From Dehalococcoidia bacterium (GTDB lineage Bacteria > Chloroflexota > Dehalococcoidia > SHYB01): a DNA stretch of 64,000 bases. Under the pieces are notes generated by a model. It worked only from the letters and a program-made list of their open reading frames with translations. It searched no databases and was not told the DNA's origin. A program made the position numbers and the translations under genes. Positions 6,153-38,548 of the stretch are shown one piece after another (the stretch's first letter is position 1; each line of letters opens with the position of its first letter). The DNA is taken from NCBI GenBank assembly GCA_034421515.1, contig DAOUKH010000003.1:29691-93690 (forward strand), written 5' to 3'.

Positions 6153-6243
6153 GGAGGGATCGCATAGTCTGGCCTAGTGCACCCGCCTGCTAAGCGGGAG
6201 GGGTTCGCGCCCCACATGGGTTCAAATCCCATTCCCTCCGCCA
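6153..6243 (+). tRNA. tRNA-Ser (GCU)
   Basis: Acceptor GGAGGGA/TCCCTCC; anticodon loop cuGCUaa; long variable arm; 3' G-CCA. Confidence 0.85.
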
Positions 6244-11418: not shown

Positions 11419-12612
11419 CTAGCCGCGCGGCAGTCCAAGCCCGCGCGTCGCCACGATGTTGCGCTGCACCTCGGACGTTCCGCCGCGGAGGGTGAACGAG
11501 AGGTCGTTGACGTACTCCGCGGTGGGCCAGCCATCCAGGATGGCGTACTCCGACCCCCGGTGCACCTGCCCGGCAAGCCCCATGATGCGCATCCCCACCT
11601 GCGAGATGCGCTGCGCGATCTCCGTGCCGATGAGCTTGGAGGCCGACGCCTCCTGGTTCGGTATCTTTCCCTGCGACTGCATGAAGCCGACGCGATAGGC
11701 GAGCATCCTGCCCGCGTGGTTGGCGATGGCGACGTCGGCGAGCGCGTTCTTGAGCGCGGCGGGCAGCGCCGAGCCCCCGTTCGCGGCCATCTCGCCGGCG
11801 ATCTCGACCAGCTCGTCGATGGAGCGCTGCCCTGAGGCGAACTTGGCGATCCCCGAACGCTCGAAGTCGAGCGTCGTCGCCGCCACGTACCAGCCGCGGT
11901 TCTCCTCGCCGATCATCATGTGTTTGGGCACGCGCACGTCGTCGAAGAAGACCTGGTTGAAGTAGTGCACGCCGAGGGGGTTGAGGATCGGGCGCACCGT
12001 GATGCCGGGCAGGTCCATGGGGATGAGGAAGACTGAGATGCCGCGGTGCTTCGGCGCTTCAGGGTCGGTGCGGGTGAGGAGGATGCAGCGGTTTGACCGG
12101 TGGGCGCCGCTCGTCCAGATCTTCGAGCCGTTGACCACGTAGTCGTCGCCGTCGGCCACGGCGGCGCACTGCAGCGAGGCCAGGTCCGACCCCGACCCCG
12201 GCTCGCTGAACCCCTGACAGTAGATGTGCTCGCCCGCCCGGATCGGCGGCAGGATCTCCTGCCGCTGCGCCTCCGTGCCGTGGACCATCACCGTCGGCGC
12301 GACGAGGTTGACCCCGGTGGAGAGGTCGCGCTGCGGCGCGCGGTAGTACGACTGCTCCTCGTTGTAGACCATCTGGTCGAGGACGGAGAGGCCCCTGCCG
12401 CCGTACTCCGGGGGCCAGGCCATCGTCAGCCAGCCCCGCTCGACGAGGCGCGCGGTGAAGTCGCGGATCAGGCCCCAGTACTCGTCCTCGAAGTAGGAAT
12501 CGGGATAGACGCCGCGCCACCCGTCGGGCAGGGCCTCGCGGAGGAAGCTCCGCACCTCGAGGCGGAAGTCCTCCTGCTCCTGGGTAAAGCGAAACTCCAT
12601 GCACGGCTCCAA
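11419..12612 (-). CDS. acyl-CoA dehydrogenase family protein
   Basis: 397 aa; ACAD N-terminal, middle and C-terminal domains; C-terminal FTLRGGTSEVQRNIVA motif. Confidence 0.85.
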   Translation of the reverse strand: MEPCMEFRFTQEQEDFRLEVRSFLREALPDGWRGVYPDSYFEDEYWGLIRDFTARLVERGWLTMAWPPEYGGRGLSVLDQMVYNEEQSYYRAPQRDLSTGVNLVAPTVMVHGTEAQRQEILPPIRAGEHIYCQGFSEPGSGSDLASLQCAAVADGDDYVVNGSKIWTSGAHRSNRCILLTRTDPEAPKHRGISVFLIPMDLPGITVRPILNPLGVHYFNQVFFDDVRVPKHMMIGEENRGWYVAATTLDFERSGIAKFASGQRSIDELVEIAGEMAANGGSALPAALKNALADVAIANHAGRMLAYRVGFMQSQGKIPNQEASASKLIGTEIAQRISQVGMRIMGLAGQVHRGSEYAILDGWPTAEYVNDLSFTLRGGTSEVQRNIVATRGLGLPRG

Positions 12613-12895
12613 CGCTCGGGACGGCCCGATTCTAGGCGCGGCGGCGAAAGGCGTAAAGCGGCGGGGGGGACGGGCTGTCGCTGTTGCGGTACGGACGACG
12701 CCCTACTCTGGGGCATGTGTGCAAATTGCAAGTACTACTTTCAATTTGCACGCCGTATGCAGTCGAGGGACGACGGCGCGGCGACAGCGGAGGGCTGCCG
12801 CCGACCTTGACGTCGTGTGTTAGGGTCCTGGACCGTTCGGCGCCCTCCGCCGAACAACCAGGACAAGGGCAACGGATCAGAAAGGAGCACCACAC

Positions 12896-13135
12896 ATGGC
12901 AGCTGGAGAATACGTGATCGCCCCGGGAGTGAAGGTCATTCTTGACGAAACGACGTATGGATGCCACAGCTACTGGGGATTCGGGTATGAGGATGAAGGG
13001 TATGTCTCGTTCCGCGTCCAGAGCGATGATGACGGGTGTGCCGATTTTGTGGGCGATGTAACGGCGTGGCTGCGAGAGAGGCAGGAGGCGTTCCTAGCCG
13101 AGTGGCGGACGTCTTTCCTCGAATCCATGGACTAG
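12896..13135 (+). CDS. hypothetical protein (79 aa), inside the low-GC island
   Basis: ORF with an RBS-like AGGAGCA upstream; no family. Confidence 0.3.
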   Translation: MAAGEYVIAPGVKVILDETTYGCHSYWGFGYEDEGYVSFRVQSDDDGCADFVGDVTAWLRERQEAFLAEWRTSFLESMD

Positions 13136-13169
13136 GGCCAAAGGCGCCGGAGCCGTAAAGGAGCATCGC

Positions 13170-13328
13170 ATGGGCGGAGTCCTGAGGATTCCCTTCTACT
13201 ACTGCAACGATTGCGTCGATGAGCGGCAGGTTGATGTCGAGCTATCGGAGAAGGACGAAGTGTGTCCCCGATGCGGCGAAGAGCTCGACTGGAATGACAT
13301 CTACGGCCCTCCTGCGCTAAACCCTTAG
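13170..13328 (+). CDS. small zinc-ribbon protein (52 aa, CxxC...CxxC)
   Basis: Not in the ORF track because it is under 60 aa. MGGVLRIPFYYCNDCVDERQVDVELSEKDEVCPRCGEELDWNDIYGPPALNP*; sits immediately upstream of the AIPR gene. Confidence 0.35.
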   Translation: MGGVLRIPFYYCNDCVDERQVDVELSEKDEVCPRCGEELDWNDIYGPPALNP

Positions 13329-13413
13329 CTGCAGGCCACGCGTTGACACGGCGCTGTGGACCTCCTCTAGAAGCTGCGCTAGACTGCCCCGATACCGAAT
13401 CGAGGGCAGACAT

Positions 13414-15252
13414 ATGGCGCCACGCAAGGCCGACTCGAAAGCATACAGACAAAGGATCCGGCCATTCCTCAAGGAGTGGGAGGAACGCGGCTTCTCTAAA
13501 GAATGGCAGCAGTTCCGAAATTGGTCGGTAGAGCAGGTCTTGTGGGACCAGGAACTGTCTCCGGCAGAAATCGAAGACGCTACTCAAATTGACGGGTCGG
13601 ACGACAAGGGCATCGACGCCTGGTACTTCGATGAGGATGCTGATCCACCGCGCCTTATTCTGATCCAAGCCAAAGATCAGGAGATTGGAACACGTGACTT
13701 CCCTACGCTTCTATCCGGCTTCCGGGACGTGGTCAGTGGACTAGCGAGTGGAAACGCTGCTCTACAAGAAAAGGCTGCCGCATTTCGTTTACAACCGCCC
13801 AAGTTCTTCAACCTCGAATTATATCTTACAACCTCGACCATCGCGCAGGAGGGCTACCGGCCAAAGGAAGACGGAAGTCCTGTACGTACCGAATCGGAAT
13901 TTCTCAAGGTCCTTGACAACAGCTTCGCCAAAGTCTCCTATTATGTCAGAGACATTAAGTATCTTTACGATAAGTTGCAAGTATACAACAACGCACGGAT
14001 TGGATATACCTTCCATGTCGACAAAGACGCCTTCTTCGCGTTTGAAGCAGCCAATCACAAAACTGTTTGCGCTGCTATTGCTGGCGAAGAATTAGCGGAG
14101 TTGTTTTTAAATCATCGGGAGAATCTCTTCCGGGAAAACCCTCGCTACCATCTCCGTTCCGTCACGAACGAAAGGATCAAGGGAGCCCTTCGCGAATCCC
14201 AGCCTGACTTCTTTTTATACAATAATGGGCTCACTTGCGTCGCACGAACAATCAATTTGCCAGATGGCAGTGAAGGAGACAAGGTGCGGATTGAGGTTGA
14301 GGATTTTCAAATAGTCAATGGTTGCCAAACTGTAGCATCAATATGGTCAGTATTCAAGGACAAGACGGCAAACATCAGTAAGGTCAGAGTCTTGGCAAAA
14401 ATTGTCGAAAATTCTACAGCTGGTTCGGATGCAGATGGAATGTCTATGTTGATTGCCGAACGGTCAAACACTCAAAATGCATTGAAGGCCTTCGATTGGA
14501 AGGCAAATGACAAGCGACAGCAGCGTTGGCACGCACTGCTCCAGAGAATGGACCCTCCCTGGTTTTATGAAATCAAGCGGGGTACTTGGGCAGCCCTTCC
14601 AGCATCAGACAAGGCACATTATCGCTCGGGCAAGACTACTCAAAAGGTTAGCATGAAGGAGTTGGGGCAAGCAGGCTATGCGTTCTTGGGTTATCCAGGT
14701 TCCGCGGCGGACAAGCCTCGCAACATCTTCAAAAGTGATCGTGGCGATCCGGAGGACAATCGCGATAACTTATACGACACGATATTCCATGAAGGACTTT
14801 CTGGATCGCAATTGTTGTTGCCTCATCTGGTCTTCTTGGAAGCCGACGAAATAGCGAAAAGGAAACCGACTCTCAAGCTTTCAGATGCCAAAGATGACGT
14901 ATTCCCAAGCAAGTCACTTCGTTTCCCGGCCGTGGCCATAGTTGGGCATATGCTATCCGCGCTCGCGGAGCAGAAGCAGGGCTATCTTTCTCCCGCGCAC
15001 TCCGACGAGTTGCTTCGCAATAGGACTTGGCTTCCAGAGTTCGCAAAGACAGCGTTTGACGTGCTGGAGCCTAAACTGGCTGAGGTGTCCCGAGCACCAG
15101 GTTCGGGTGGCCCTAGGCGCATCGTCAGGGGCGACAATTGGATGGGCGATGCTCCCGCGAATGCACTCAATCAGATTCGTGCTCAGCTCAGGACTGAACA
15201 GCGTCTCGGTGCTAGTGGCGAGGGAACCCTTTCCGGGTCACTGCCCTTCTAG
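13414..15252 (+). CDS. AIPR-family abortive-infection (phage resistance) protein
   Basis: 612 aa, about 50% GC against a 70% GC background; QIVNGCQT motif and overall layout of Abi-like AIPR proteins. Confidence 0.6.
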   Translation: MAPRKADSKAYRQRIRPFLKEWEERGFSKEWQQFRNWSVEQVLWDQELSPAEIEDATQIDGSDDKGIDAWYFDEDADPPRLILIQAKDQEIGTRDFPTLLSGFRDVVSGLASGNAALQEKAAAFRLQPPKFFNLELYLTTSTIAQEGYRPKEDGSPVRTESEFLKVLDNSFAKVSYYVRDIKYLYDKLQVYNNARIGYTFHVDKDAFFAFEAANHKTVCAAIAGEELAELFLNHRENLFRENPRYHLRSVTNERIKGALRESQPDFFLYNNGLTCVARTINLPDGSEGDKVRIEVEDFQIVNGCQTVASIWSVFKDKTANISKVRVLAKIVENSTAGSDADGMSMLIAERSNTQNALKAFDWKANDKRQQRWHALLQRMDPPWFYEIKRGTWAALPASDKAHYRSGKTTQKVSMKELGQAGYAFLGYPGSAADKPRNIFKSDRGDPEDNRDNLYDTIFHEGLSGSQLLLPHLVFLEADEIAKRKPTLKLSDAKDDVFPSKSLRFPAVAIVGHMLSALAEQKQGYLSPAHSDELLRNRTWLPEFAKTAFDVLEPKLAEVSRAPGSGGPRRIVRGDNWMGDAPANALNQIRAQLRTEQRLGASGEGTLSGSLPF

Positions 15253-15307
15253 CCCCTAGCCCTCCTGCGAGACTGCTACACCCTACCGCCATCCCCGTCC
15301 AGGGTGC

Positions 15308-15601
15308 CTACCCCGATACCCCATCGCAGATGATGGTGCTGCAGATGGTGCTCCTTGAGCGGATCTTCGCAAGATCCCGGTACTCCGGCGAGTTGACGAA
15401 GGCCCGGGCCTTGCCGAGGTCTCCGAACTCTATGACGACGACTCGGTCATGCGTCCGGTCGCTGTCCACGACCTCGATGATGCCCCTGCGCACCAGATAC
15501 CTGCCGTCGTGGGCCTCCACGAGCGCCCCGATTCGATTGGAGAATTGAGCGAGCAGCTCCGCGTCGGTGACTTCCATATCGGCGATCAAATACGCTGCCA
15601 T
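15308..15601 (-). CDS. DUF1330 domain protein
   Basis: 97 aa; MAAYLIADMEVTD...GRYLVRRG...VVVIEF...A..NSPEY pattern. Confidence 0.65.
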   Translation of the reverse strand: MAAYLIADMEVTDAELLAQFSNRIGALVEAHDGRYLVRRGIIEVVDSDRTHDRVVVIEFGDLGKARAFVNSPEYRDLAKIRSRSTICSTIICDGVSG

Positions 15602-15709
15602 CTCGACACCTCTCTTCTCGCTTCTATCGTAACGACGTCAATTCCGTGACACTTTTCCCGTGCCGTGCTGAACGCGCGGCGCGGCAGGCGGAACGAGATG
15701 CACGCCCCC

Positions 15710-16114
15710 CTACGGCCTGCGCCACCACGCCACGCCCGTGAGGGCGGCGGAGAAGGCGAACATCGCGAGGCCGAGCGGCACGTGGAGGGCGGAGAACCAG
15801 CGGTAGTCGACGGTGCCTTCGCCGAGGGCTTGCTGGATGGTCCAGAGGAAGGCGAGCGCGGCGGTGGCGGGGACGATCCGGGTGGCGGGGTCGAAGCCGG
15901 CGCGGAGGGCGGCGGGGAGGATGACGGCGAGGACGACGGCGAAGGAGATGCGTCCCAGCCAGAGGTGGATGTCGAGCATGGTGGCGCCGCCGCCTGAGTA
16001 GAAGCCGCCGAAGAGGAAGCCCTGGAGCAGGACGACGAGCGGCGTCAGGGTGATCAGCAGGCGGTAGAGCTTGGCGGCGGTGGGCCGACGGGCGGGGTGC
16101 GTAACGCCAATCAC
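15710..16114 (-). CDS. hypothetical integral membrane protein
   Basis: 134 aa with 3-4 TM helices. Confidence 0.4.
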   Translation of the reverse strand: MIGVTHPARRPTAAKLYRLLITLTPLVVLLQGFLFGGFYSGGGATMLDIHLWLGRISFAVVLAVILPAALRAGFDPATRIVPATAALAFLWTIQQALGEGTVDYRWFSALHVPLGLAMFAFSAALTGVAWWRRP

Positions 16115-16731
16115 GTGGGCCTCCGGCGAGTCGGTTCGGCCTCCGCGGCCTGCACCGCGTCGTCGAGAAGACGGGCGGCGCGGTCTTCGAGGGCGAGTGC
16201 TTGGGCGGCGGCACGGCCCTGGGGACTCATCTTTCGCCAGGTGCTGACAAGCACCTCGACCATGCGCGCGTCGTCGTCGAGCTGGCCGGCGAAGTCGGCG
16301 AGCTGGGTCTCCATGAAGACGAGGCAGAGGGCGTCCTCCATGGCCTGGGCGTCGGGGTCGCGGCCGAGGCCGCGCTTGCGCACGAGGTCCTGGGCTCGCT
16401 TGACCTCGGCGGCGCCGTAGCCGGCATCGGCCATGATCTCGCCGAGCGCGTCGGCGTGGAAGCGCTGGAGGGCGGTGCGCCAGCGGAGGTAGCCCTCGCG
16501 GCCGGCGGGGTAGGCATCGCGGGGATGCTCCCAGCGCCGGATGTGGTGGGCGCGGGCGGCGAGCAGGAGCAACTCGCCCGCGTCGGGGCGCAGCGCGCTC
16601 ACCCAGCGGGTCATCATCTCGGCGTGGGCGGCTTCCTTGGGACGGGGAACGCCTTCAACGGTCAGCCTGTTGGGATCGGCGGCGTTGGCGTCGTCGATGC
16701 GGCGGATGGCTTCCTCGAAGCGGGCGGTCAT
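16111..16731 (-). CDS. DUF4202 domain protein
   Basis: Start set at internal ATG (MTARFEEAIRRIDDANAADPN...LAARAHHIRRW...YLRWRTALQRFHA); the upstream part of ORF 16111..17007 overlaps hemH and is Arg/Pro-rich shadow. Confidence 0.5.
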   Translation of the reverse strand: MTARFEEAIRRIDDANAADPNRLTVEGVPRPKEAAHAEMMTRWVSALRPDAGELLLLAARAHHIRRWEHPRDAYPAGREGYLRWRTALQRFHADALGEIMADAGYGAAEVKRAQDLVRKRGLGRDPDAQAMEDALCLVFMETQLADFAGQLDDDARMVEVLVSTWRKMSPQGRAAAQALALEDRAARLLDDAVQAAEAEPTRRRPT

Positions 16732-18742: not shown

Positions 18743-18874
18743 CGTCGCGCCCCCATGTTCAAGACCGGCCGCAGGCCGCCGCCCATTGTAGTGCACTGGC
18801 GGGCGCGCGGCGCGGTGGGGGAATCGACCACCGTTTGCACGATAACGATACCGCTGGTAGTATCACCTCGCAGC

Positions 18875-19123
18875 ATGTCACAGAAGGAAAAACGGCTGGC
18901 GAGGGCGAAGGAGAACCCGCAGGGATTCCGATTCGAGGAACTCCTACAGCTTTACAAGGATTGGGGATTCGTAGTCGAGCCAAGCGGGAGGGGAAGCCAC
19001 TACAAGGCACAGCTGCCGGGAACCCCCGTTAGGACTAGGGTTCTCACGCGCTCAAACCCCGTGAAAAGCATCTACGTGAAGCAGGCGGTAGAGGCCATTG
19101 AAGAGGCTCAGGCGCTGTCTTGA
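18875..19123 (+). CDS. hicA: type II toxin-antitoxin system HicA-family toxin
   Basis: 82 aa; MSQKEKRLARAKENPQGFRFEELLQLYKDWGFVVEPSGRGSHYK... Confidence 0.65.
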   Translation: MSQKEKRLARAKENPQGFRFEELLQLYKDWGFVVEPSGRGSHYKAQLPGTPVRTRVLTRSNPVKSIYVKQAVEAIEEAQALS

Positions 19124-19143
19124 GGCGGGAAGGACCTTCGACG

Positions 19144-19569
19144 ATGAGCGGTGATCTTGCGCATTACGCGGCACTGCGTTATCCGGTGCTCCTGACGCGG
19201 GTATCGGACAACGACGAGGATTACTGGGCGGCTGAGTTCCCAGACTTGCCGGGCTGCCTCGCGGATGGACGGACCCCAGACGAGGCCGTGGAGAACGCGG
19301 AGGCCGCCAAGGGCATCTGGATTGAAGCCGAGCTCGAAGCAGGACGAGCGGTCCCAGAACCGGCAGGCGACCGCGACTATAGCGGCCGGTTTGTCGTGCG
19401 GATTCCCCGCTCGCTCCATCGCCGCCTTGCCCTCACTGCACAGAGGGAAGGCGTGAGCTTGAATCAGCAGGTCGTGTCGAGACTCGCGGAAACGACCGCC
19501 GCTCCGGAATCTCCACGGAAGTCCGCTGCGCCGCGACGGTACCCAGGGAGAACGGCGAAGTCGGCGTAG
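19144..19569 (+). CDS. hicB: HicB-family antitoxin (UPF0150 N-domain plus C-terminal ribbon-helix-helix)
   Basis: YPVLLTRVSDNDEDYWAAEFPDLPGCLADGRTPDEAVENAEAA motif; C-terminal RIPRSLHRRLALTAQREGVSLNQQVVSRL. Confidence 0.7.
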   Translation: MSGDLAHYAALRYPVLLTRVSDNDEDYWAAEFPDLPGCLADGRTPDEAVENAEAAKGIWIEAELEAGRAVPEPAGDRDYSGRFVVRIPRSLHRRLALTAQREGVSLNQQVVSRLAETTAAPESPRKSAAPRRYPGRTAKSA

Positions 19570-22232: not shown

Positions 22233-22511
22233 GTGGCCTTACCGAAACCCAGCCGGGTTTGGACCGTGGCCGAGGCCAAGGCGCGGCTATCGGAGATCTT
22301 ACGCCTCGCCGAAGAGGAGGGCCCGCAGCGCATCGGCGCGCGTAAGTCCTTTGTGGTCGTTCCCGAGCACGTTTGGGAGTCTCAAACGCCTTCCCGGAAA
22401 CCCTTGGGCCAGTGGCTAATCGAAAACGTGCCGCGGGGTACAAACCTCGAAGTACCAGACCGGAGTTCCAACCGAGAGATTCCGTTCGTCCACGACGAAG
22501 ATGACGGATGA
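22233..22511 (+). CDS. type II antitoxin, Phd/YefM-like (VapB partner)
   Basis: VWTVAEAKARLSEIL... motif; overlaps the downstream PIN toxin gene by 4 nt. Confidence 0.6.
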   Translation: MALPKPSRVWTVAEAKARLSEILRLAEEEGPQRIGARKSFVVVPEHVWESQTPSRKPLGQWLIENVPRGTNLEVPDRSSNREIPFVHDEDDG

Positions 22512-22927
22512 GTGGCTGTCTGTTGGACACCAATGTGGTCTCGGAGTTGACAAGGGATGCTCCGGACCCACGCGTCCTGGCATTCCTGGCGGACCGGGAA
22601 GATGTATGGCTGTCGTCTGTTCTCGTCCATGAGACGGAATACGGCATACGGCTACTTCCCAGGGGAAGGCGGCGTGACCGGCTGGCTGCGATGCAGGCAG
22701 GGATCCTGTCCATCTATGCCCATCGCATACTGCCTTTAGACAGAACCAGCGCGGAGTGGGCAGCCGAATTCCGTGCCAACGCGCGGCTGTCCGGGCGTGT
22801 CGTTGAGCTTGGAGACGTGCTGATAGCCGGAATAGCCAAGGCCCATGACCTCACCGTGGCCACCCGCAATAGAGTCGATTTCGAGCCCCTTAACGTCGAT
22901 GTCGTCAACCCCTGGGAATTCTCCTAA
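22508..22927 (+). CDS. vapC: VapC PIN-domain toxin
   Basis: LLDTNVVSEL N-terminus and acidic PIN residues. Confidence 0.8.
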   Translation: MSGCLLDTNVVSELTRDAPDPRVLAFLADREDVWLSSVLVHETEYGIRLLPRGRRRDRLAAMQAGILSIYAHRILPLDRTSAEWAAEFRANARLSGRVVELGDVLIAGIAKAHDLTVATRNRVDFEPLNVDVVNPWEFS

Positions 22928-37852: not shown

Positions 37853-38170
37853 TTGAAGTACCGTACCGTCATCACTTCACGGGCTGGAGAGGGCCTTCGC
37901 GGTGTCAGAGACCTTCGTGAGCAACGCAGAGTCTACCGGCGGGCGCTGGACCTGGAGGCCGAGCCACTCAAACAGGGGAAGCCACTCACGGGCGGTCTCC
38001 TAGGGTACCGGAGCATTCGTGCAGGGCAGCGTCATCGCATCCTCTACACCGTCGACGAAGGGGAGCGCGCAGTCGTCGTCGTATTGATCGGGACACGAAA
38101 GGAGGGCGACAAGGGAGATGTGTACAGAATCGCGGAACGGCTCTCCAGGCTGGGCCTTCTATCACCTTGA
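37853..38170 (+). CDS. RelE/ParE-family toxin
   Basis: ...YRSIRAGQRHRILYTVDEGERAVVVVLIGTRKEGDKGDVY C-terminal RelE signature. Confidence 0.7.
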   Translation: MKYRTVITSRAGEGLRGVRDLREQRRVYRRALDLEAEPLKQGKPLTGGLLGYRSIRAGQRHRILYTVDEGERAVVVVLIGTRKEGDKGDVYRIAERLSRLGLLSP

Positions 38171-38251
38171 ATCGTGTCGTTACCTACCCACTAGTCTCGG
38201 GTGACATGATTGGTCACCGCCCTCGAATGGGCACACGAAAAGGGAAACAAC

Positions 38252-38548
38252 ATGACAACAGATCAACTAAACAGGAAGACGGAGCGGGTCAGCATAACGA
38301 ACGCCAGGAACTCCCTGACCAAGCTGCCGGAGAAGCTTGAGCAAGACCCCGCAATCATCGAAGTGACGCGGCAGAACATCCCGGTCCTCGCCATCCTCAA
38401 TTGGGACGACTGGGAGGCGATTGTAGAGACGCTCGAGATACTGGCCGACCCGGAAGCGATGGAGCAGCTTCGTCAGTCCATCGCCGACATCGAAGCCGGC
38501 CGCGTCCAGGACCTGCGGGAGTTGGGCAAGGAGCTTGGACTCGATTAG
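38252..38548 (+). CDS. Phd/YefM-family antitoxin
   Basis: ...ITNARNSLTKL...EVTRQNIPVLAILNWDDWEAIVETLEILADPEAMEQLRQS; located downstream of the toxin. Confidence 0.7.
   Translation: MTTDQLNRKTERVSITNARNSLTKLPEKLEQDPAIIEVTRQNIPVLAILNWDDWEAIVETLEILADPEAMEQLRQSIADIEAGRVQDLRELGKELGLD

Follow-up and report, generated by a model that had tools for sequence, protein, structure and literature searches.

The window analysed here is a 64,000-nucleotide (nt) stretch of contig DAOUKH010000003.1 from a Dehalococcoidia bacterium of the phylum Chloroflexota. Between an acyl-CoA dehydrogenase gene and a DUF1330 gene it carries a low-GC islet with an AIPR-family gene and, upstream of it, two small open reading frames (ORFs), which a preliminary description took for a defence cassette recently acquired by horizontal transfer. 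Our analysis points instead to a site that is probably old, positionally fixed and variable in content, occupied by an intact AIPR gene for a predicted nuclease of the AbiUi type, with a presumed role in defence, and by an orphan protein of two modules, and at which the modules have been swapped between related genomes. The genes concerned are:

11419-12612, minus strand: acyl-CoA dehydrogenase gene, the left flank
12896-13135, plus strand: 79-aa ORF, the N-domain module of the orphan small protein (allele type A), with Shine-Dalgarno sequence GAAAGGAG
13170-13328, plus strand: 52-aa ORF, a four-cysteine zinc ribbon (Cys 12, 15, 32 and 35), the C-terminal module as a separate gene
13414-15252, plus strand: AIPR-family gene, 612 aa, intact, matching PF10592
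15308-15601, minus strand: DUF1330 gene, the right flank

The sharp fall in GC at 12640-15300 that had been described is borne out both by sliding windows and by GC at third codon positions (GC3). GC is 0.511 in the AIPR ORF and 0.541 over the whole span; same-size windows elsewhere in the 64 kb have 0.6825 +/- 0.0193, with a minimum of 0.629, which places the AIPR ORF about 9 standard deviations under their mean. The 300-nt windows of lowest GC (0.45-0.49) fall at 13700-14600. GC3 is 0.55 for AIPR, 0.95 for the acyl-CoA dehydrogenase gene and 0.82 for the DUF1330 gene, with the two small ORFs intermediate at 0.68 and 0.70. Each of the three islet ORFs is preceded by a Shine-Dalgarno-like sequence. 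An independently assembled Logan contig, L001 (4191 nt, SRR13587046), is identical to window positions 12510-16700, and the islet junctions are thus not an artefact of a single assembly.

The same neighbourhood occurs on five further contigs, designated L002, L083, L170, L171 and, as a fragment, L084. On the left the order is NadA, NadB, an 80-aa gene, DUF4286 and acyl-CoA dehydrogenase, followed by the islet; on the right come DUF1330 (in some), a 134-aa gene, DUF4202, ferrochelatase and UroD. Flanking genes give the host relationships as ((window, L171), L002), (L083, L170), the number of synonymous substitutions per synonymous site (dS) of acyl-CoA dehydrogenase against the window being 0.089 for L171, 0.18 for L002 and about 0.35 for L083 and L170. 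All five relatives have the small protein or proteins and then AIPR, and the four longer contigs are all low in GC there. Comparison of these sequences establishes that the common ancestor of at least five related genomes already had the islet. The DUF1330 gene, present in the window, L002 and L171, is deleted in L083 (10160-10350) and L170 (7821-7850), so that the right-hand edge of the islet is structurally variable too.

Signs of mobility were sought at the locus itself. The islet region contains no integrase or transposase ORF, and no tRNA gene stands beside it, the nearest lying at 6153-6243, 6.4 kb away. Two pairs of direct repeats were considered as target duplications (16/19 matches at 13384 and 15308; 11/11 at 13306 and 15259) and rejected, being at chance level for 3.2 kb; the bracketing repeats are not conserved in L002, and one copy falls within the coding sequence of DUF1330. 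When metagenomes were scanned with the acyl-CoA dehydrogenase protein, nothing above 52% identity came back, and no further syntenic or empty sites were found. The occupied site in five relatives, together with the lack of mobility genes, argues that the islet is not a recently integrated cassette.

Nor does its composition date it. Among homologues in Dehalococcoidia metagenome-assembled genomes, AIPR genes sit 8-24 GC points under their own flanks in 17 loci, and polarised third-position changes (AT-to-GC/GC-to-AT: 28/26, 27/26 and 18/36) show no AT-to-GC excess. Low GC across the clade without drift towards GC indicates that it is a stationary feature of the family and not a clock of recent arrival. 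The proposal that a zinc-ribbon cofactor and an AIPR effector were acquired recently as one unit does account for the large deviation in GC and GC3, it sits well with the strong AIPR family match, and one part of it stands: the AIPR allele of the window is a recent import, a singleton with saturated dS beside near-identical flanks. However, the conserved gene order and site, the missing mobility genes and tRNA (none within 6 kb), the chance-level repeats and a GC content that is not decaying all count against it. Furthermore, the zinc-ribbon ORF and the 5' untranslated region (5'UTR) of AIPR are 93-96% identical to those of L171 and were therefore inherited, rather than having arrived with the new AIPR allele. 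As stated, acquisition of the whole cassette is largely refuted, and we hold it to be improbable.

The evidence for exchange of single modules comes from a mosaic pattern of identity. L171 is the nearest relative of the window, with many 100-nt blocks of the flanks 100% identical and a dS of 0 for the 134-aa gene. Aligned with it (the last line also with L002), the locus divides as follows (dN, nonsynonymous substitutions per nonsynonymous site; pS, proportion of synonymous sites that differ):

Left and right flanks, housekeeping genes: 93-100% nt identity, dS 0-0.2
12619-13192: upstream region and 79-aa ORF, a second mosaic segment; 32-66% nt identity, protein 60%, dS 0.73
13193-13391: zinc-ribbon ORF and 5'UTR; 93-96% nt identity, dS 0.129, dN/dS 0.19
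13392 to about 15290: AIPR; 51-70% nt identity, protein 58.6%, pS 0.75 (saturated), dN 0.32
13426-15280: replaced segment, from AIPR codon 5 to about 28 nt beyond the stop, placed by the identity steps against L002 and L171

Positions 12795-13094 are 92-96% identical to L002 at the nucleotide level, and the 79-aa ORF is 94% identical to its counterpart there (dS 0.15); the AIPR protein is again 59% identical. Identity to both L002 and L171 drops from 85-96% to 50-77% at 13392-13426 and recovers to 89-97% at about 15281-15366, and the synonymous sites of AIPR are saturated as against a flank dS of 0-0.34. These alignments demonstrate that recombination at conserved junctions has exchanged the N-domain, zinc-ribbon and AIPR modules each on its own.

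The direction of the AIPR replacement can also be read. The window allele forms a singleton cluster in a collection of 15 billion proteins, and the type represented by protein P0002 is found on at least six contigs, which identifies the window allele as the incoming one. The resident P0002-type alleles of L002, L083 and L170 are equally far apart (84.8-85.5% nt identity, dS about 1.0), unlike their hosts, of which L083 and L170 are sister genomes (flank dS 0.12 vs 0.35); the resident alleles thus look exchanged too. For their dS of about 1.0 an effect of base composition is a partial alternative, opposed by the star-like distances and the balanced AT and GC changes. Non-equilibrium composition as the sole cause of the high dS of the window AIPR was rejected, since the N-domain and zinc-ribbon ORFs, which are just as AT-shifted, keep a flank-like dS where alleles are shared.

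It might be argued instead that the window AIPR was inherited vertically, as a form of the resident allele that reached 59% identity in place, through an arms race or diversifying selection. In a neighbour-joining tree the window protein (P0001) is indeed sister to the P0002 type, on the longest branch, and the two types have the 5'UTR and the first 4-5 codons in common. But positive selection does not speed synonymous change, and pS is 0.75 where the flanks have a dS of 0-0.2 against L171. AIPR is moreover under purifying selection (dN/dS about 0.07 against the P0002 allele), its four domains are all evenly diverged (54-61%), and the divergent segment begins abruptly at codon 5 and ends as abruptly about 28 nt past the stop. 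Taken together, saturated dS beside near-identical flanks, low dN/dS, even divergence and sharp edges rule out acceleration in situ by selection, and vertical descent with hyper-divergence is in our judgement highly improbable.

Frameshift-split copies of AIPR were also seen, at L083:8460-10272 (393 + 232 aa), L168:6001-7837 (398 aa) and L169:5347-7173 (169 + 391 aa). They are either pseudogenes or products of long-read indel errors; L083 is labelled as having 8x coverage and L168 65x.

The gene in the window is intact, and its assignment to the AIPR family, made earlier on the strength of a QIVNGCQT motif, is secure. Pfam PF10592 matches residues 239-500 with 145 bits (gathering cut-off 25; E = 5.2e-42), the motif lies at residues 299-306, and all 34 aligned relatives match the same model. 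The closest AIPR homologues belong to Dehalococcoidia hosts. The window protein keeps all 61 invariant positions of the 34-sequence alignment, among them Q299, V301, N302, G303, C304, Q305 and T306. PHROG 1841 ('Abi alpha-like') aligns with residues 51-470 (E = 3.4e-38), and the AbiU model of PADLOC (PDLC02357) matches the core only (E = 2.9e-28, residues 235-483 with model positions 241-454 of 537). The NCBIfam model for MzaE (NF041935) scores 61.6 bits, its cut-off being 1050. Neither Pfam nor NCBIfam gave a match to DndB or DGQHR models at E <= 0.1, and no dnd genes were found in the neighbourhood. AIPR proteins are frequent in annotations of defence systems, but very little is known of how they work, and we know of no solved structure. 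A Foldseek search with the AlphaFold2 (AF2) model (mean predicted local distance difference test score, pLDDT, 86.8) found no solved relative in the PDB at E <= 0.001, and sequence profiles of the full-length protein and of its N-terminal 150 aa had no match there. Two regions of the protein can be delimited:

13546-13833, plus strand: predicted N-terminal PD-(D/E)xK (Mrr/FokI-like) nuclease domain, about residues 45-140, with E54, D68 (GIDAW) and Q85-A-K87 (LILIQAKD)
14128-14913, plus strand: AIPR core, PF10592, residues 239-500, with NLFRxNPRY, NNGLT, QIVNGCQT (14308-14331) and WFYEIKRG

According to the structural model, the N-terminal part is an Mrr/FokI-like PD-(D/E)xK nuclease domain of predicted activity. 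It has a restriction-endonuclease-like fold with an acidic residue and a (D/E/Q)xK motif on adjacent strands: D60, D64, G66-I67-D68 and Q85-x-K87 are invariant and E54 is nearly so, and these residues lie on adjacent strands in an Mrr-like arrangement. Six of the 34 AIPR members give weak matches to Mrr_cat. The PHROG 1841 alignment, which spans both regions, indicates that the nuclease-plus-core architecture is common to prophage AIPR proteins. The core is ParB/sulfiredoxin-like and related to DndB at the superfamily level, and a helical region follows it at the C-terminus. A relationship between DndB and AIPR has been noted before (PMC3506569).

The preliminary description had wondered whether the C-terminal domain might be HEPN-like. 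No HEPN family matches the protein, and no histidine is invariant in the 34-sequence alignment, which leaves no conserved Rx4-6H motif; the effector-like domain is instead the N-terminal PD-(D/E)xK domain. AIPR proteins have been described in general as possessing an N-terminal HEPN domain (PMC3506569), and on the evidence of this alignment that statement fails for the clade of the window. According to a 2026 review, AbiUi resembles FokI and is alone sufficient for resistance, and its neighbour AbiUii reduces its activity (PMC13064643).

Both small ORFs proposed upstream of AIPR proved to be real and conserved, including the 52-aa CxxC...CxxC frame that was missing from the automatic ORF list. 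On the basis of sequence comparison we regard them as the two halves of a single orphan protein, a beta-rich/helical N-domain and a four-cysteine zinc ribbon. The sequences are fused as one protein of 142 aa in L002 and L084 and of 121 aa in L083, and are two ORFs in the window, L171 and L170. The identity of the 79-aa ORF is 94-95% with the N-terminal half of the 142-aa proteins (dS 0.10-0.15, dN/dS about 0.2) but falls to 60% with its 80-aa counterpart in L171 (allele type B), and each of the two allele types of the N-domain is found both fused and split. The separate zinc-ribbon ORF, with AAAGGAG 6 nt ahead of its ATG, is 94% identical to that of L171 (dN 0.025). Its cluster has six members of 49-52 aa on six contigs, which share the same ATG and all begin M(G/S)G(V/I)LRIP, and CxxC-x16-CxxC is conserved in 9 of 9 sequences. 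Zn_ribbon_8 of Pfam (19.8 against a cut-off of 34.4, E = 8e-4) and FmdB TIGR02605 (17.7 against 31.3, E = 0.003) both match below threshold. The seam between the two halves is marked by a short insertion:

13129-13135, plus strand: 7-nt insertion GGACTAG, which brings a stop codon and a frame shift relative to the fused alleles, as aligned with L002 and L084

In both of these genomes the reading frame continues across the seam and ACG stands at the position of the window's ATG (13170), and positions 13122-13192 match both L002 and L171 poorly. That the nearest relative is likewise split indicates a heritable two-gene state rather than a private lesion, and the pattern of fusion and fission suggests that the two halves work together.

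Outside its own lineage the small protein was not found. No Pfam, NCBIfam or PADLOC family matches it, nor does any PHROG family convincingly; a word-indexed search of 5.8e9 proteins returned three clusters (90% identity), all from the same lineage, and a profile search of 1.84e9 representatives yielded nothing beyond it. The profile had one extra match, the FG-GAP-like repeat protein P0124, which was dismissed as spurious. An AF2 model built from four sequences had a pLDDT of 42, was thus unusable and was left out of the fold search. Wherever the neighbourhood is readable in the five relatives the small protein adjoins AIPR and is co-oriented with it (L084 shows only the first 84 nt of AIPR). 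Judging from this arrangement it is a candidate regulator or partner of AIPR, with the zinc ribbon as a possible cofactor or sensor. Co-occurrence of zinc ribbon and AIPR, which had been proposed as a check, thus holds in the five syntenic relatives but not beside other AIPR homologues, which are without a small protein of this type.

The small ORFs could alternatively be passengers, or genes in decay, that are functionally unconnected with AIPR; the split into 79 and 52 aa would then be a pseudogenising lesion. Such an interpretation is in keeping with a family confined to one lineage and lacking beside other AIPR homologues, with small-gene and AIPR alleles that do not co-segregate, with the conserved upstream region that AIPR has of its own and with the stop-bearing insertion at the seam. 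Against this, both halves are under purifying selection (dN/dS 0.14-0.25), the separate zinc-ribbon ORF has the same ATG and Shine-Dalgarno sequence on six contigs including the nearest relative, and in L170 it is preceded at 56 nt by its own copy of an upstream element described below. The ORFs are also constantly adjacent to and co-oriented with AIPR, and in other parts of the class AIPR has an equally constant neighbour in another orphan (27 of 27 copies). On balance we think it unlikely, though far from negligible, that the small ORFs are mere passengers.

Three non-coding elements accompany these genes:

12719-12751, no strand assigned: perfect AT-rich inverted repeat GTGCAAATTG-N13-CAATTTGCAC upstream of the small genes, a hairpin or operator candidate
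12821-12840, plus strand: palindrome-containing element TAGGGTCCTGGACCGTTCGG, a promoter or operator candidate, ending 56 nt short of the ATG that opens the 79-aa ORF
13384-13409, plus strand: AIPR 5'UTR hairpin CTGCCCCGA-TACCGAA-TCGAGGGCAG, pairing with the AIPR Shine-Dalgarno sequence GAGGG

The inverted repeat is unique in the window, where none is expected by chance, and folds as a hairpin of 10 + 4 bp. It lies within about 108 nt that L002 lacks and is kept at 32 of 33 positions in L083 amid otherwise unalignable sequence; it was not found in L002, L084, L170 or L171, and exact-pattern scans of metagenome and viral collections returned no copy. The palindrome-containing element is likewise present once in the window, is conserved in L002 and has a near-identical sequence in L084. 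In L170 a second copy, GGTCCTGGACCGTTCGG, precedes the separate zinc-ribbon ORF with the same 56-nt spacing to the ATG. A sigma-70 consensus scan placed no promoter at this element, sigma-70 promoter and intrinsic-terminator scans of the islet gave nothing useful, and Rfam contained no credible RNA family for it.

The 5'UTR hairpin has counterparts at L002:5971-5996, L083:8430-8455 and L084:1110-1135. Its stem is of 9 bp with one bulged A, and the 7-nt loop is variable. RNAalifold over the four genomes gave an invariant stem and a variable loop, with one C-to-U change that retains a G-U pair; the covariation is thin. Over the approximately 45 nt that precede the AIPR ATG, identity is about 90% in every relative, including those whose adjoining ORFs have about 60%. 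The hairpin may be a translational brake, and from the alignments it appears to be a conserved junction at which the modules recombine.

AIPR loci elsewhere in the class carry a different companion. An orphan protein of 85-123 aa with the pattern 'MGLDIGI...SLPW' lies 53-668 nt from AIPR, on either side and on either strand, in 24 other Dehalococcoidia/Chloroflexota loci, and every one of the 27 copies found adjoins AIPR:

L003, L004, L006, L008, L009, L015, L016, L020-L024, L026-L029, L033, L040, L041, L085-L087, L168, L169: loci with the 'MGLDIGI' protein
L085:4441-4809, minus strand: an example of the protein

This family has no Pfam match and is absent from the window, and kinship with the window's small protein was rejected (hhalign probability 0.15%, unrelated). 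The AIPR genes of these loci likewise occupy a fixed site in their own lineage, beside Amidohydro_2 and luciferase-like genes, and some are frameshifted. In that lineage (L087:3418-4419, L169:3764-4765 and L026:8355-8732) a SocA_Panacea-domain gene and a 130-aa gene stand just past the AIPR partner gene, possibly a toxin-antitoxin-type module in the same variable spot.

How such a protein might work is suggested by comparison with known systems. AIPR would act as a single-polypeptide anti-phage nuclease, in which the ParB/DndB-like core would bind DNA, possibly in a nucleotide-dependent manner, and would license cleavage by the N-terminal nuclease. By analogy with AbiUi and with the logic of GmrSD and BrxU, the core may sense the state of DNA or of a nucleotide. 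GmrSD and BrxU consist of a ParB-like sensor or NTP-binding module joined to a nuclease, and the window AIPR appears analogous in this respect. Its translation would probably be damped by the 5'UTR hairpin over the ribosome-binding site, and the small protein or proteins may modulate or assist the nuclease.

A close counterpart is the lactococcal AbiU system, whose AbiUi shares with the window protein the AIPR core, a length of about 540-610 aa and a layout of a single gene with a neighbouring modulator gene. AbiUi confers phage resistance, with delayed phage transcription (Dai et al. 2001, as reviewed in PMC13064643). AbiU differs in that its neighbour AbiUii is a predicted HEPN protein, whereas the neighbours in the window are an orphan N-domain protein and a four-cysteine zinc ribbon; AbiU is on a Firmicute plasmid, and the window AIPR, which is known from sequence alone, occupies a fixed position on a high-GC, Chloroflexota-like chromosome. 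Prophage and satellite AIPR proteins (PHROG 1841; Salmonella phage RE2010) have the same architecture, with 25.6% identity over residues 24-502 by tblastn. They differ in that low identity (about 25%) and in their moron or hotspot positions in phages, the window gene not being in a prophage, and PHROG 1841 leaves the C-terminal 140 residues of the window AIPR uncovered. MzaE of the MZA system (NF041935, PDLC02207) resembles it through the AIPR core (E = 5e-17 and 1e-12), but has MzaA-D as neighbours in place of the acyl-CoA dehydrogenase and DUF1330 genes. DndB/DGQHR and DUF262 proteins are more distant: the window AIPR has no hidden Markov model (HMM) match to the DndB, DGQHR, DUF262 or DUF1524 models. 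The DUF262-type nuclease is C-terminal and HNH-like where that of the window AIPR is N-terminal and of the PD-(D/E)xK type, and the DndB/DGQHR motif is DGQHR or DGQQR where the window has NGCQT and no dnd or ssp modification genes. Finally, the site recalls the P2/P4 defence hotspots in its conserved flanks, turnover of content by recombination and AT-shifted composition, and AIPR genes are among the known cargo of defence hotspots (PMC9122126). Unlike at those hotspots, the type of cargo in the window is constant (small protein and AIPR), with only the alleles swapped module by module, and the site is chromosomal with no mobile element.

A defence role for the window AIPR is therefore suggested by analogy with these relatives, and several points weigh against the interpretation we favour. 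Some of the relatives are low-coverage long-read assemblies (8x and 10x), so that their frameshifts and fusions may include sequencing errors. In the predicted nuclease a glutamine stands where an acidic residue is expected in the (D/E)xK motif; glutamine at this place is typical of Mrr-type domains. At the HMM level the protein shares only the core with the PADLOC AbiU model. AbiUi, the sole tested relative, gives modest protection, with an efficiency of plating of 0.1-0.01 (PMC13064643). What ties the small protein to AIPR is their constant adjacency in one lineage, within which the observations are not phylogenetically independent, and the failure of their alleles to co-segregate speaks against a tightly co-evolving pair.

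A fixed position, purifying selection and housekeeping neighbours would, in addition, fit a non-defence role in DNA binding or regulation. The gene might encode a chromosomal DndB/ParB-like DNA-binding or regulatory nuclease linked to housekeeping or modification, its low GC reflecting functional or regulatory constraint. Such a role would agree with the fixed sites among housekeeping genes in two separate Dehalococcoidia lineages, with strong purifying selection, with a core related to the regulator DndB and with a neighbourhood that holds no restriction-modification genes or other defence genes, the closest toxin-antitoxin module being 3.6 kb off. However, allele turnover, variation in presence and absence and frequent frameshifted copies (L083, L168 and L169) are typical of accessory defence genes, and prophages carry homologues as moron genes (PHROG 1841; Salmonella phage RE2010). 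The tested family member AbiUi protects against phage (PMC13064643), no dnd or ssp genes are nearby, and no DndB HMM matches. We consider a non-defence function quite unlikely.

Other low-GC stretches of the window also hold small modules. A second patch of lower GC (about 0.59) at 18860-19569 contains a hicAB-like pair, of which the 149-aa HicB antitoxin (19120-19569) is confirmed by Pfam and the upstream ORF of about 87 aa is HicA-like by eye with no Pfam match. L171 has this patch and L002 lacks it, and HicB-like genes are found at the same site in L083 and L170. A PIN/VapC toxin at 22508-22927 lies in another of the window's lowest-GC 500-nt stretches, as does a ParE-like toxin (37853-38170) followed by a Phd/YefM antitoxin (38210-38548). 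GC dips in the window mark small accessory modules.

The AIPR gene itself thus belongs to a known family, and what is new here is the history of its site, the assignment of its effector domain and the description of candidate partners. The locus gives a testable picture of one AIPR clade, with an Mrr/FokI-type nuclease whose predicted catalytic residues can be named and a ParB/DndB-like core, and it brings to light two sets of small candidate partner proteins that have no database description. It also illustrates that a strong low-GC signal need not mean recent insertion, since here an old site with a stationary composition has undergone gene-for-gene replacement of alleles. Allele replacement between nearly identical genomes is what 'pan-immunity' would lead one to expect, seen at single-gene resolution in an uncultured phylum. 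One may speculate, though we are doubtful, that Chloroflexota AIPR nucleases are two-component systems in which an interchangeable small partner serves as sensor or inhibitor and partner and effector alleles are reshuffled by recombination at the 5'UTR hairpin junction. The partner would be the N-domain and zinc-ribbon protein, on one chain or two, in the lineage of the window and the 'MGLDIGI' protein in other Dehalococcoidia. If so, reshuffling would create new combinations of specificity within a fixed chromosomal slot.

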